Shown here piece after piece: positions 1-15,703 of a DNA stretch of 64,000 bases (positions are counted from its first letter, which is position 1; each line of letters opens with the position of its first letter). Location of the stretch: the NCBI RefSeq assembly GCF_013122565.1, contig NZ_CP053258.1, one strand, 5' to 3'. The translations under genes and the position numbers were made by a program. The notes beneath the pieces are model-generated. The model did not search any database, had not been told where the DNA came from, and was given only the letters and a program-made list of their open reading frames with translations. Source of the DNA: Escherichia coli. Lineage in GTDB: Bacteria > Pseudomonadota > Gammaproteobacteria > Enterobacterales > Enterobacteriaceae.

Positions 1-173
1 AGTACACCAAAAACCACGATGACGGTGAACGTAACTTTGGTTGTAGTCAGGGATAAGTAATTTATTACCGGAGAAGTGATTGTAATGGCGGAGTATGCAA
101 CATCATCTTAAATCAACGGGTTAGTGTTGCTGCTCCTGTCTTTTATCAACGTAAAGACAGAAGGACAATCGTC

Positions 174-392
174 ATGAACAATCAACCGAATACCGATACT
201 GACCTGATGAATGACAAACTGGTGACGATGGCATTTATTACCACGTTTACTGGCCTGACCGACAAATGGTTTTATAAACTGATTAGTGAAGGCAAGTTTC
301 CAAAGCCTATCAAACTGGGGCGTAGTTCCCGCTGGCGGGAAAGTGAAGTTAAACGCTGGCTGACGGAACGTATTGCAGAATCCCGCTATTAA
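174..392 (+). CDS. AlpA-family small phage-type transcriptional regulator (72 aa)
   Basis: 72-aa ORF; translation resembles the AlpA/Vis family of P4/CP4-57-type islands as I recall it; assignment from memory, not searched. Confidence 0.6.
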   Translation: MNNQPNTDTDLMNDKLVTMAFITTFTGLTDKWFYKLISEGKFPKPIKLGRSSRWRESEVKRWLTERIAESRY

Positions 393-594
393 TCCCCCTG
401 ACACTATCTCTACACGCTTTACCCATAACGCTATATCAGTGAGCGCCTGACAGGGCCGTTGCTGTGCATCTATCGACGTGTAACTTCATTATGCCCGGAT
501 GAAATACGTTTCGTTTAACGTTGTCGAAAAATAATTAACCGGGGAATAGCCTGCTTATTTAGCAGAAATTCCCCGGATGCAGCCACAGATAAAA

Positions 595-1380
595 TTAGGA
601 ATTAAATGTCCAGCTACCCGTATCGGTCACAATGTCAGCTTCAATGATACGGTCACACTTCATATATTTGAACGTAGCCACATCACCGAATTTATATTTT
701 GCTGGCAGGGTTCTGTTACCGACGCTCTCCATTTTACAGTTCCCTCTGTTTACCCGAATGGATTTCAGCACCACGTTGTCATCAGTGATAGTGAGCTGAA
801 TAACACCATATCTGGTATTCCAGCCTTCATTGCTGACGGAGCTGCCGAACTGAACTTTAAATGGTGGTGTCGTAGATTGCTGTACCTGCTGTTGTTGAGA
901 GGGAGCAGGTTTATTAGCCTGCTGGCTACCAACGCTATTAATGCCATTCTGAAGGAGGCTCCTGGAAACCTTAATGGTACCCGGCTTGCATGATACTGTG
1001 CTGGTTTCCTGCCCCATTGCATTCATGACAGTGTAATAAGCATCACCTGTACCATCATATTCTGAGTAATTGACTGCAACCGCGCCTTCGATATCTTCAT
1101 TTTCTCCACGTAATGTGAAAGAAGCAGTTCCTGCTCCCGGATTAGCCGCCAGAGTCTGTTTCGCTTCGCCGGAAGGAATATCCAGTTTGATAACGGAACC
1201 ACCTTCTTCGGAGTCACCACCTGGCGTTTCAAAACTGATATAAACGGTATTACTGACGTGGCTGAGTGTCATTTGCTCACCGTTATCAAGCAGACATTGC
1301 AGGTCATAGGCCCCGACAGCATAAGCAGGGTGGAATGCAAATAAAGATACAAACAATACAGGTATAATGATTGGTTTCAT
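595..1380 (-). CDS. hypothetical secreted protein (261 aa) with N-terminal signal peptide
   Basis: Hydrophobic N-terminus MKPIIIPVLFVSLFAFHPAYA; Gln-rich linker; starts 12 bp after the upstream GTPase gene, suggesting an operon. Confidence 0.55.
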   Translation of the reverse strand: MKPIIIPVLFVSLFAFHPAYAVGAYDLQCLLDNGEQMTLSHVSNTVYISFETPGGDSEEGGSVIKLDIPSGEAKQTLAANPGAGTASFTLRGENEDIEGAVAVNYSEYDGTGDAYYTVMNAMGQETSTVSCKPGTIKVSRSLLQNGINSVGSQQANKPAPSQQQQVQQSTTPPFKVQFGSSVSNEGWNTRYGVIQLTITDDNVVLKSIRVNRGNCKMESVGNRTLPAKYKFGDVATFKYMKCDRIIEADIVTDTGSWTFNS

Positions 1381-1392
1381 TAAGCACTTTCC

Positions 1393-2406
1393 CTATCCAA
1401 AAAAATGGTCCCAGGCATTACCAGCCCACTCGATAAGTTTGTCTTTCCCCTTACGGGTAAGCTCTTTGACAGGCTTTGGTAACGGAAAAGAATCAATAAC
1501 GTCGTCGAGTATCCCGGAGATTACGCTGCCAAAGCCGTTTTTTGCTTCCGTCTTTACTTCGTCGGTTTTGAACTCATCCTTAACCTGCGAAGCCGTGCTA
1601 CTTTTAGCCCGATCAGGCAAAGCCCGAATAATAGTCTCTACCAGACGAAGAATGTTGTAGCCCTCATCGGCGGAGACAGGTGTCACCGGATAGTGCGTAA
1701 AACCAAATCGTTCAGTAATGTAGGCTTCTTTCTTTTCGATGTTGATGCGCTGTGCAGGAGATGGCTGATGCAGATGAGTATCCCACTCGCGGAATGGCTC
1801 AATTTTATCAACCTGGTTAAGGACGAATAAAACGCGCTCACCCCCACCAGCAGGGAGCAGAACATTGTTGTAGAAATGCTCATCCGCAGAAAAGGCCCGA
1901 TCGTCTCCTTTTATTACCCACAGGATAAGATCCAGGGAGGGAAGCAAATTGCGGTATAAATCTTCATACTCCTTATCCCGCCGGGCATTCTCACCGACAC
2001 CAGGTATATCAATGATCTTTAGCGAATGTTTGCCGAAGCGTATACGCAATTCCTGAACTTCGCGAGTACATGCCTCAACGTCGCTAACTGCACAAACCTC
2101 CCCTTTAAACAGCGCATTACATACGCTGCTTTTCCCCGCGCCTGTTTTTCCCATGACACCAATCACGGGTTCATAGTCGATGGCTTCACTGATTTTGTTC
2201 AACAGCTTTTCCCGCAGTGGCTGAGGGAAAATATCAAGAATATCCCTGATGTCGGGTATGTGCGGTTTGCTATCACCTTTTTGCTCGTTGCTACCATTAC
2301 GTTCTGGAAATATATTGCCCCACATTCCAAAAATCCCGCCTTCCCTTCTGGTGACGCCACTGGCATCAGTAATCATCCGGCCTTCGCCCTTTACCGGGTC
2401 ATCCAT
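1393..2406 (-). CDS. YeeP/YfjP/YkfA-like prophage GTPase (337 aa)
   Basis: P-loop GKTGAGKSS and DIPG G3 motif in translation; this family is typical of CP4-type cryptic prophages in E. coli. Confidence 0.7.
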   Translation of the reverse strand: MDDPVKGEGRMITDASGVTRREGGIFGMWGNIFPERNGSNEQKGDSKPHIPDIRDILDIFPQPLREKLLNKISEAIDYEPVIGVMGKTGAGKSSVCNALFKGEVCAVSDVEACTREVQELRIRFGKHSLKIIDIPGVGENARRDKEYEDLYRNLLPSLDLILWVIKGDDRAFSADEHFYNNVLLPAGGGERVLFVLNQVDKIEPFREWDTHLHQPSPAQRINIEKKEAYITERFGFTHYPVTPVSADEGYNILRLVETIIRALPDRAKSSTASQVKDEFKTDEVKTEAKNGFGSVISGILDDVIDSFPLPKPVKELTRKGKDKLIEWAGNAWDHFFG

Positions 2407-2445
2407 ACGAGGTCTCCTTTTTTAATTTGAAATAAACGTTGTCTG

Positions 2446-13847: not shown

Positions 13848-14079
13848 ATTTCAAAAAATATATTAACCGTAACTATCCATTTTAACTAGTTGGCATTTTT
13901 AGCGCCTGAATTTATCTCATGTATATATCTCGCAATGAACATTACAGTGATTAAGCATTAAAAATTATTAAACGAGAATGTTCATAATGATATTTATGTT
14001 TTAGACATTATTGTAAACATCCTTATATTCTACTCCATCCGTACTAGTAGAAGGTATTATAATAACAATAGTACTCAAC

Positions 14080-14109
14080 GACCAACTAGCCCTCTTGGGC
14101 TAGTTGGTC
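14080..14109. other. Perfect 13-bp inverted repeat with 4-nt loop just downstream of the integrase stop
   Basis: gaccaactagccc-tctt-gggctagttggtc read directly; possible int terminator or protein-binding site. Confidence 0.5.
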
Positions 14110-14150
14110 ATCATGATATTACAATCAACCAAAAAATAAAGGCATTCAAG

Positions 14151-15419
14151 TCACTCGCCATTACCCCGATTGATCTTCGCATAGTCAAACGGCGTAATCG
14201 CTCTCTCCCGATTGGCATCCAGAAAATCAGCCCACCACTGCAACATCAGCTTGCGTTCATCCAGGTGTTCCGCTTTATGGATATACGCCGCCCTCACTGA
14301 ATTGCGTTCCATATGGCTCATCTGCCTTTCCACCGCATCCTTCGACCATAGTCCTGACTCAATTAGCGAACTACAGGCCATTGTGCGGAAACCGTGACCA
14401 CAAACTTCAACCTTAGTGTCATAGCCCATCACCCGTAGCGCACTGTTTACGGTGTTCTCGCTCATGGGCTTACGCGGATCGTGATCGCCAATAAAAATCA
14501 GCTCATGCTCACCACAGAACTGCTTTATCTGCTTCAGGATCGCCAACGCCTGCTTTGAAAGTGGCACCAGATGCGGTGTACGCATCTTTGATCCTCGCTG
14601 AGAATGTTTAACATCAGGAATGGGTTCACGTTCCGGTGGAATCGTCCACATCGACGTGTCGAAATCTATCTCCGACCAGCGGGCAAAACGTAGCTCGCTG
14701 GATCGAATAAAGATAAGCAGGGTAAGTTCGGTTGCCCAACGGGTTAATCGCCTTCCAGTATAGCTGTCTATTTTCTGAAGCAGTTCTGGAATACGCTTTA
14801 ACTCCAGAGCCGGGCGATGCTGTCGCTTGCCAGAAGCAACGGCTCCCGCCATCTCTTGAGCCGGGTTATAATCAATCAGTCCACTTTGCACAGCATAACG
14901 CATGATAGCCGTGGTACGTTGTTGGAGACGGGAAGCCACCTCAAGACGTCCAGATATCTCTACGGCTTTAATGGGAAGTAACAAATCACGGGTACTCAAT
15001 TCAGCAATATTACGTGTCCCAATCGCCGGAAAGACATTATCCTCCAGACTCTTTTTTACACGATTAGCATGATCTTCCGACCATTTTTGGTTGGTCACGA
15101 GCCACTCTCTGGCAACCTTCTCGAAAGTAATAATCTCTTTCGCCTGCTCTTCTTTCACAACACGCTTATGTTCGCGTGGATCGATACCAGCAGCTACCAG
15201 CTTTCTGGCCTCCTCCCTTTTCTTCCTGGCATCTGCCAGTGAAATTTCGGGGTAAACACCAAACGCCATCACATGCTGCTTGCCACCAAAACGAAAACGA
15301 AATCGCCAATATTTGGAGCCATTAGCATGTACCAGTAAAAACAGGCCATCACCATCAGATAGCGGGTTTGCATTATCTTCAGATTTTGCCGAACGGACTT
15401 TAGTATCAGTCAGAGCCAT
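14151..15419 (-). CDS. P4-family tyrosine integrase (422 aa), apparently intact
   Basis: C-terminal catalytic region with HGFR and RAAYIH (His-x-x-Arg and Tyr motifs); N-terminus typical of P4-like integrases; adjacent to the tRNA 3' end. Confidence 0.9.
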   Translation of the reverse strand: MALTDTKVRSAKSEDNANPLSDGDGLFLLVHANGSKYWRFRFRFGGKQHVMAFGVYPEISLADARKKREEARKLVAAGIDPREHKRVVKEEQAKEIITFEKVAREWLVTNQKWSEDHANRVKKSLEDNVFPAIGTRNIAELSTRDLLLPIKAVEISGRLEVASRLQQRTTAIMRYAVQSGLIDYNPAQEMAGAVASGKRQHRPALELKRIPELLQKIDSYTGRRLTRWATELTLLIFIRSSELRFARWSEIDFDTSMWTIPPEREPIPDVKHSQRGSKMRTPHLVPLSKQALAILKQIKQFCGEHELIFIGDHDPRKPMSENTVNSALRVMGYDTKVEVCGHGFRTMACSSLIESGLWSKDAVERQMSHMERNSVRAAYIHKAEHLDERKLMLQWWADFLDANRERAITPFDYAKINRGNGE

Positions 15420-15618
15420 GATACTTCTCCTTCCATGTACCGCCGTGAGTATACAAACATTATCGAATCAGCATATATACTCAGTTATATACTCACAAGC
15501 GACTTGATGTGGGTTGACCCAGGTTGACTTCAGTTGAGGGGAAAATCGAGGAAAGCCTTGTGTAGCGCGGGTTTCAGGCATAAAAAAAGACCTCAGTTGA
15601 GGTCTATTTACATACTTT

Positions 15619-15703
15619 TGGTGCCGAAGGCCGGACTCGAACCGGCACGTATTTCTACGGTTGATTTTGAATCAACTGCGTCTACCGATTTCGCCACTTC
15701 GGC
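15619..15703 (-). tRNA. leuX: tRNA-Leu (anticodon CAA)
   Basis: Reverse complement reads GCCGAAGTGGCGAAATCGGTAGACGCAGTTGATTCAAAATCAACC...GGTTCGAGTCCGGCCTTCGGCACCA with CAA in the anticodon loop and 3' CCA. Confidence 0.9.

Follow-up and report, generated by a model that had tools for sequence, protein, structure and literature searches.

What is the DNA that follows the tRNA-Leu(CAA) gene leuX in this Escherichia coli genome, where does it end, and by which route has it acquired its genes? We addressed this question in a 64-kb stretch of contig NZ_CP053258.1 (64,000 nucleotides, referred to here as the window); positions are those of the window unless another locus is named. An initial annotation, made from the sequence alone, had described a leuX-integrated island with an adjacent integrase gene (int) and non-core DNA reaching to position 1. 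Our analysis upholds this description. With high probability, an integrative island of ~22.6 kb occupies the leuX 3' end, most of it within window 1-15638, and combines a backbone resembling that of the K-12 element CP4-57 with a putative defence cargo slot that would be renewed mainly by homologous recombination.

ARAGORN recovers one tRNA gene in the 64-kb window, an intact leuX at 15619-15703 on the minus strand (Rfam tRNA score 59.4 bits). Rfam agrees for positions 1-17000 and, besides this tRNA, finds no RNA gene in 1-17000 or in 9.8 kb beyond the window. On one side of leuX lies core DNA that begins with ahr (from 15857, plus strand) and continues with yjgR, lptFG, pepA, holC and valS, and on the other side non-core DNA extends from int down to position 1. 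The GC content is 0.52-0.56 in the core, 0.45-0.53 in 1-8500 and only 0.29-0.38 in 8500-14000. For the distribution of the island, we counted how many of 5426 complete E. coli genomes carry at least 80% of a given segment. Positions 1-16500 are present in a single genome, Z1323HEC0475 (identity 96.5-96.6%), the hsdR-hsdM part of the cargo in 409 genomes (7.5%), the integrase region in 333 (best identity 92.3%) and the ATPase/HNH/DUF4365 part of the cargo in 22. Because the whole arrangement is found in only one of the 5426 genomes, we conclude that the segment is an island and not core DNA; presence in essentially all E. coli was the test that the initial annotation had named for its own claim. 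The comparison with the K-12 leuX locus that it had also suggested gave a matching result, in that K-12 carries wholly different DNA between leuX and nanS.

The gene next to leuX, int (14151-15419, minus strand), lies on the same strand as the tRNA gene, and its open reading frame (ORF) starts 199 bp past the leuX 3' end. It encodes a full-length tyrosine integrase of 422 amino acids (aa), in which Pfam recognises the domains Arm-DNA-bind_3 (E = 4e-29), Phage_int_M (1e-27) and Phage_integrase (9e-20). Int is 57.6% identical to the integrase of phage P4 across 97% of its length (E = 3e-153). When Int is aligned with P4 Int and with the integrases of three E. coli islands, residues R239, H342, R345, H369 and Y379 do not vary. 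The NCBIfam model PRK09692 matches at 271 bits, under its 434-bit cutoff, and no PADLOC model matches Int. When compared with the alleles of E. coli Z1323HEC0475 and W, int has a ratio of non-synonymous to synonymous substitution rates (dN/dS) of 0.05 at dS = 0.66, indicating that the gene evolved under strong purifying selection. Taken together, the three domains, the identity to P4 Int and the invariant catalytic residues support the earlier designation of the product as a predicted intact P4-family integrase. The exact Int protein is recorded in a single contig, SRR11451224_41.

The island proper stops within the tRNA gene, at a 20-bp attachment (att) core (GAGTCCGGCCTTCGGCACCA; 15619-15638, minus strand) that forms its right-hand boundary, and the 5' part of the tRNA gene is host DNA. 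The same 20 bp are annotated as the attP core of P4 (positions 418-437 of the P4 record, L009). Between this core and int we identified arm-type repeats at 15445-15496, one copy on the plus strand (GTGAGTATACAA, 15445-15456) and a tandem pair on the minus strand (GTGAGTATATAA / CTGAGTATATAT, 15496-15473). The motif GAGTATAYA has three copies in the 64-kb window, all of them in 15445-15496. The initial annotation had reported no direct repeat of the tRNA 3' end in the window, and we obtained the same result: a 23-mer of the tRNA 3' end has a single match in the 64-kb window when up to three mismatches are allowed, and the 20-bp core occurs once at up to four edits including indels. With one core copy in the window, the far boundary of the island has to lie outside it.

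This far boundary could be read in the 62.6-kb contig SRR11451224_41, which was found through an exact-protein look-up with a 261-aa backbone protein and is also the only contig that the look-up returned for Int. Loci of this contig are 100% identical, without a mismatch, to window 1-11380 and 4151-18597 (together 1-18597), and we therefore treated it as the same genome. It reaches 9.4 kb past window position 1, where it carries genes for a YfjJ-like protein, a 317-aa protein, DUF932, RadC, CbeA/CbtA, DUF4942 and a DUF6088/AbiEii pair. Next come nanS and nanM; the trio nanS-nanM-nanC forms a conserved flank on the far side of the leuX region and is present in K-12 too. Between AbiEii and nanS, in the orientation of the tRNA, lies a degenerate core, GGTGCGGCCTTC-GCACCA, at 18280-18297 of L002 (our locus coordinates for this contig). 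It is the sole candidate core repeat in the contig at up to four edits and differs from the last 18 nt of the leuX core by one substitution and a 1-nt deletion. The search of the flanking genome for a repeat of the leuX 3' end, which had been proposed as a check, thus yields one copy, though a degenerate rather than a perfect one, and the boundary does lie past position 1, as had been anticipated. With this far end, the island has a predicted length of ~22.6 kb, one end lying at window 15638 and the other 6.9 kb past position 1.

The far core is flanked in the manner of a P4 attachment site. A tandem pair of arm repeats at L002 18200-18223 precedes it by 55 bp, and homology to the int arm comes after it. 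In the 25.3-kb composite of window and contig, GAGTATAYA has five copies, every one at the two ends; in E. coli W we found three copies, at both ends, where shuffled sequences give an expectation of 0.43. Both the island and P4 have a tandem pair before the core (at 55 bp in the island versus 53 bp in P4), a tandem pair after the core (122 bp versus 112 bp) and, 16 bp versus 15 bp further on and near the start of int, an inverted copy. The repeats are 12 bp long in both elements and differ in sequence, with NTGAGTATAYAW in the island and NTGGGGGCAYAW in P4. Hence both arms of a putative P4-type attachment site are present, and its sole visible defect is the imperfect far core. The same degenerate form, GTGCGGCCTTC-GCACCA, is common to E. 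coli W, Z1323HEC0475 and two further contigs, and the far core of GF43 has a 1-nt deletion alone. That diverged strains have the imperfect core in common implies either that the junction is old or that it was spread by recombination. Right downstream of leuX, 47 bp at 15572-15618 contain a terminator-like hairpin and are 100% identical in K-12. This short stretch is matched in ~3000 genomes regardless of which island comes next, so that it is either common to many leuX occupants or part of a conserved tRNA transcription unit.

These features suggest how the island may have come to its site. Its own P4-family tyrosine integrase would have recombined the tRNA gene with the 20-bp core of the element, which has the sequence of the leuX 3' end, and integration would have regenerated the tRNA and pushed an earlier occupant of the site outwards. 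Such an occupant can be recognised beyond the far core. The sequence after L002 18297 (...TCGGAACATCAATAGACG) aligns over ~170 nt with the leuX-int segment, including the terminator-like hairpin and the int upstream region up to GATTCGATAATGTTTGTA. In E. coli W, the homologous stretch reaches up to where a second, intact integrase gene starts, and in Z1323HEC0475 the integrase of the second element is split by IS100. We infer that the island inserted in front of an older related element, the latter surviving as a ghost of ~0.8 kb. As far as its content is concerned, the ghost occupies L002 18298-19138 (0.84 kb), from the far att core to nanS, and keeps an int-upstream arm of ~170-180 bp, with the integrase gene deleted at about its start codon. 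It holds two short ORFs, one of them similar to the N-terminal part of a phosphorothioate-DNA-binding (ScoMcrA-like SBD) endonuclease.

The backbone of the island consists of window 1-3586 and the 6.9 kb beyond the window, and its gene order is the same in every relative examined. At the edge of the window, 1-56 (plus strand) represent the cut 3' end of a YfjJ/YagK-like ('inovirus Gp2 family') gene, the frame at 3-56 reading ...YTKNHDDGERNFGCSQG*. In the identical contig, the full gene (L002 11325-11939) encodes a 204-aa protein with the Pfam domain PF11726 YagK_YfjJ_C and a weak match to the replication-initiator family REP_ORF2-G2P. It is followed by a gene for a small DNA-binding protein of the AlpA family (174-392, plus strand; 72 aa; PF05930 Phage_AlpA), which is annotated as AlpA family in GF43 and matches the PHROG 'excisionase and transcriptional regulator' (E = 4e-10), so that this protein probably serves as excisionase and activator of int. 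The 261-aa backbone protein (595-1380, minus strand) is predicted from its ORF, has an N-terminal hydrophobic leader and matches an uncharacterised PHROG only and no PADLOC model; its gene adjoins, in all relatives examined, that of a YfjP-like GTPase (1393-2406, minus strand; 337 aa; PF01926 MMR_HSR1), for which small-GTPase NCBIfam matches were obtained, all under cutoff. The last backbone gene in the window encodes a YfjR-like WYL-domain regulator (2446-3129, minus strand, with the longest ORF extending to 3216; 227 aa by the called start; PADLOC WYL E = 2e-17).

This gene content resembles that of CP4-57, which in K-12 is integrated at ssrA and carries intA, alpA, yfjJ, yfjP, yfjQ, yfjR, yfjY/lfgB and yfjZ-ypjF. 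By BLASTP, 8/8 of these backbone genes have homologues in the island at 28-83% identity, namely YfjJ at 28%, IntA at 38%, YfjR at 41%, YfjP at 42%, RadC at 55%, YfjZ at 62% and YfjQ at 83%; the likeness of AlpA is weak by BLASTP (8e-4) and backed by Pfam. CP4-57 also resembles the island in carrying defence or toxin-antitoxin cargo within its backbone (AbpAB and RnlAB). The two elements differ in their target (ssrA versus leuX), in their cargo, in protein sequence (identities mostly 28-62%) and in gene order, with alpA of the island 14 kb away from int and encoded on the other strand. In the initial annotation, the AlpA, YfjR-like and GTPase genes had been taken as a sign of either a large composite island or tandem elements. 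Since the three genes are syntenic in every relative, they belong to the backbone of the same element, and we rejected them as the mark of a second one. The proposal of a large composite island is thereby contradicted, also by a size of ~22.6 kb. The proposal of tandem elements was right in so far as a vestige of a second element, ~180 bp of its int-upstream arm, follows the far repeat; it is not signalled by the AlpA, YfjR-like and GTPase genes.

Judging from break-points in the homology to relatives, the variable cargo region lies between the backbone and int, at 3587-14100. Homology to the backbone of islands with other cargo ends at 3586; in two such contigs the slot is filled with TIR, a different type I restriction-modification (RM) system and SIR2. 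Homology to E. coli W and GF43 ends at 8819 and returns at about 14076-14135, and between these points W has two hypothetical genes, a 5'-nucleotidase and a phosphorothioate-DNA-binding endonuclease, and GF43 has Dsr1. In the island studied here, the cargo starts with a type I RM operon on the plus strand. It consists of hsdR for the restriction subunit (3707-7120; 1137 aa; PADLOC REase_I E = 3e-274; Pfam N-terminal DUF4145, HSDR_N, ResIII and EcoEI_R_C), hsdM for the methyltransferase (7184-8818; 544 aa; PADLOC MTase_I E = 2.5e-192; Pfam HsdM_N and N6_Mtase) and hsdS for the specificity subunit (8815-9990; 391 aa; PADLOC Specificity_I E = 6e-140; Pfam Methylase_S), the start of which overlaps the hsdM stop. 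All three genes are full length, and the PADLOC matches span the whole profiles.

The operon is directly continued by a gene pair that PADLOC assigns to the candidate system PDC-M01. The start codon of PDC-M01A (9987-11678, plus strand; 563 aa; PADLOC PDC-M01A E = 4.6e-239) overlaps the hsdS stop, and its product is an AAA/ABC-type ATPase similar to PtuA of the Septu system, with Pfam AAA_21 and AAA_15 matches and with Walker A (GPNGIGKS) and Walker B (VIDEPE) motifs in the translation. Its partner PDC-M01B (11668-12594, plus strand; 308 aa; full-length PADLOC PDC-M01B match, E = 1.4e-107) overlaps the ATPase gene by 11 nt and encodes an HNH nuclease, to which Pfam HNH has a weak match at residues 124-168 (1.2e-3). 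Septu likewise consists of two overlapping genes for an ABC/AAA-type ATPase (PtuA) and an HNH nuclease (PtuB), and in B. cereus genomes the DefenseFinder Septu and PADLOC PDC-M01 calls coincide at some loci (PMC11811056). However, PDC-M01A is by far the best match for the ATPase; the PADLOC PtuA models cover only residues 402-548 in its C-terminal ATPase region (E = 7e-48), and with NCBIfam PtuA the protein reaches 45.6 bits where 500 are required, so that by this model it is not a PtuA equivalog. A further difference from Septu is that the pair is joined to a type I RM operon at its 3' end, both in this island and in two others. PDC-M01A is Septu-like in design, but its membership of the PtuA family in the strict sense is doubtful.

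Next to int, on the minus strand, lies a gene for a protein of 330-334 aa with a nuclease-like DUF4365 N-terminus (Pfam E = 1e-35) and a DUF1817 part (12843-13847). Its start is called at 13835 in the identical contig, and the annotation of Z1323HEC0475 reads 'DUF4365 and DUF1817'. The N-terminus also matches the Argonaute-associated REase domain of PADLOC (5e-23). We regard this gene as a candidate defence gene. NCBIfam returned nothing useful for the WYL, DUF4365 or HNH proteins. Judging from family membership, the cargo as a whole would defend the cell from phage and foreign DNA.

Comparison with Z1323HEC0475 indicates that the parts of the island have different histories. Identity is 97.9% for hsdR, 96.1% for hsdM, 87.6% for int and 94.8% for the core in the ahr region, and dS ranges from 0.02-0.04 for the GTPase gene through 0.09-0.13 for hsdR and 0.23-0.27 for ahr to 0.66 for int. 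Simple vertical inheritance, which the overall identity to Z1323HEC0475 near that of the core might suggest, is ruled out by this mosaic of per-gene values. The sharpest contrast is found in a low-GC tract of 4.7 kb (8564-13234) that covers the end of hsdM, hsdS, PDC-M01A/B and most of the DUF4365 gene. It is 99.7% identical to Z1323HEC0475, with 12 differences in 4671 bp, whereas the flanks are diverged by ~5% on each side and int by 12%. For hsdS, identity between the two strains is 99.9% at the DNA level. The tract thus has the appearance of a cassette that was recently exchanged between lineages with distant integrases. Near-identical cargo next to distant integrases is the signature of homologous recombination via conserved flanks and not of integrase-mediated transfer of the whole element. 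By this route, the cargo would now be renewed mainly through recombination in hsdM on one side and in the int-proximal region on the other.

The same five-gene block of hsdR, hsdM, hsdS, ATPase and HNH genes also occurs elsewhere. In E. coli ET358 (L013) it adjoins a different integrase at tRNA-Sec, and in the enterotoxigenic E. coli strain H10407 (L014) it lies by the virulence genes tia and leoABC, next to an integrase fragment. From its presence in these islands we conclude that the block passes from one island to another and across different tRNA sites.

The leuX locus is well known as E. coli defence hotspot #37. According to Hochhauser et al. 2023 (PMC10121019), this hotspot is occupied in 97.3% of genomes and accommodates 31 defence system types; no recognisable mobile element was detected in 68% of cases, and the mode of mobilisation is left open for most occupants. 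An EcoSal Plus review from 2025 (PMC12707154; its Fig. 11 concerns this hotspot) describes the site as anchored by leuX with an arm-type integrase and gives type IB systems in 7% of strains. Measured against these descriptions, the island shares the site (ahr-leuX...nanS), the arm-type integrase by the tRNA gene, cargo with AbiEii and a putative type IB system and the replacement of clusters between strains, and the 7.5% of genomes with hsdR-hsdM matches the published 7%. The difference lies in the rarity of the combination of int allele and cargo found here, with Int in one contig and the arrangement in 1/5426 genomes.

How do other explanations fare against this evidence? The idea that the segment is core Escherichia DNA that merely lies beside leuX could appeal to the near-universal occupancy reported for the hotspot and to the 47 bp that K-12 shares downstream of leuX. 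It is nevertheless refuted by the genome counts and the K-12 comparison, to which the low GC of the cargo can be added, and its probability is practically nil. A P4-type phage satellite packaged by a P2-like helper phage would account for the P4-like Int, the identical 20-bp core and the arm layout, and P4-like satellites are described as integrating at hotspot #37. But 0/21 island genes match P4 functions (primase/helicase alpha, sid, psu, delta, cII/eps), the Pfam content resembles that of CP4-57 and, with 22.6 kb, the island is roughly double the P4 genome of 11.6 kb. Since no P4 gene apart from int was found, we rejected an identity with P4 satellites, and packaging of this kind is very improbable.

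Gene sets of the DUF932/RadC/CbeA-CbtA type are also found in the leading regions of conjugative plasmids. The backbone includes DUF932, RadC and CbeA/CbtA as well as the YfjJ-like protein with its weak REP_ORF2-G2P match, and one could therefore imagine an integrative mobilisable element that excises and is transferred in single-stranded form by a co-resident conjugative system, with DUF932, RadC and the toxin-antitoxin genes serving establishment. No relaxase, coupling protein or type IV secretion genes were found in the 22.6 kb with PADLOC, Pfam, NCBIfam and PHROGs, and the PHROG matches on the island are confined to the excisionase, a RadC-like protein and uncharacterised families; we regard this explanation as improbable. 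More weight is due to the view that the island is an immobilised relic of a single ancestral integration, the far core of which decayed so that excision ceased, with Int and AlpA persisting for other reasons and all variation stemming from homologous recombination with incoming DNA. It fits the mosaic identity, the presence of the degenerate core in E. coli W, Z1323HEC0475 and two more contigs, with the deletion alone in GF43, and the open mobilisation mode of most hotspot #37 occupants in PMC10121019. On the other hand, Int retains all catalytic residues and has a dN/dS of 0.05, the arm repeats are kept on both sides, AlpA is intact, and an imperfect far core could also go back to an attP whose core, outside the crossover region, had never matched attB. 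Overall, we consider such a relic unlikely, though a reading to be taken seriously.

We therefore favour the CP4-57-like integrative island with a slot renewed by recombination, and several points weigh against it. The far end was read in the identical public contig SRR11451224_41 and not in the window, and an imperfect far core common to diverged E. coli would fit an old, possibly immobilised insertion as well as a live element. Present-day mobility is uncertain, as is competence for excision, for which Int, AlpA and both sets of arm repeats appear intact but the far core carries a substitution and a deletion. With respect to the cargo, HsdR scores 231 bits against a cutoff of 550 with NCBIfam restrict_EcoAI and 332 against 729 with PRK11448, and since both scores are under the curated cutoffs, the assignment to the EcoAI family (type IB) is approximate. 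PDC-M01 is an unpublished PADLOC candidate for which no defence phenotype is known (PMC11811056), and none is known for the DUF4365 gene either.

The coupling of the PDC-M01 pair to the RM operon allows a more speculative proposal, to which we attach little confidence. The pair may be a functional extension of the type I RM system, the two forming one hybrid system, while in parallel the 4.7-kb tract from hsdS to the DUF4365 gene would be the unit exchanged at hotspot #37 by homologous recombination. This proposal is based on the translational coupling of the ATPase gene to hsdS and on the recurrence of the intact five-gene block by unrelated integrases. In such a hybrid, the ATPase and HNH proteins may serve, for example, as a reserve effector that is triggered by inhibition or overload of the restriction complex. 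If true, tract exchange by homologous recombination would address the mode of mobilisation, which was left open for hotspot #37.

Islands with P4-type integrases at leuX are textbook knowledge, and among the defence hotspots of E. coli none is better known or more heavily occupied than leuX. To this our analysis adds a precise far end, arms in the style of P4, a degenerate core common to several strains, a tandem ghost and mosaic evidence for cassette exchange; the retrieved passages of the hotspot #37 papers make no mention of att arms, a degenerate far core or a tandem ghost. The locus thus provides a clean worked example of a complete island with both P4-style att arms, a degenerate far core that diverged lineages have in common and the remnant of an earlier element in tandem. 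The pattern of identity (cargo 99.7%, int 87.6%, core ~95%) indicates cassette exchange at hotspot #37 and bears on the mode of mobilisation, described as unclear in PMC10121019. The island also offers a natural test case for the PDC-M01 pair and the DUF4365 gene, both of them linked to a type I restriction operon.

Further observations concern related records and the core flank. NZ_AP023207.1, a 93,845-bp record of E. coli TUM18781, carries the leuX side of the island, matching up to window 15909 and containing int together with the Dsr1 variant of the cargo; a search with window 1-16500 gave 11 matching places on plasmid-labelled records. The TUM18781 record may represent a part of the chromosome that was left unplaced, or else a copy on a plasmid. 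The L-idonate genes idnK-idnD-idnO-idnT-idnR are absent between ahr and yjgR, where they are present in Z1323HEC0475, W, GF43 and K-12; accordingly, the gap from the end of ahr to yjgR (16918-17009) measures ~90 bp here versus ~5.1 kb in Z1323HEC0475. Over the 24 kb of core at 17009-41000, the best identity to any of the 5426 complete E. coli genomes is 96.8%, and the source is therefore a divergent Escherichia lineage unrepresented among them. An exact 51-mer from window 1-51 has no match among GTDB species representatives, to which the source genome thus does not belong. When searched by megablast, core 17009-41000 has a median of 21 matching places per genome and at least 40 in 1687 records, and from these many places we conclude that it must hold a short multi-copy sequence, REP/BIME-like or similar.

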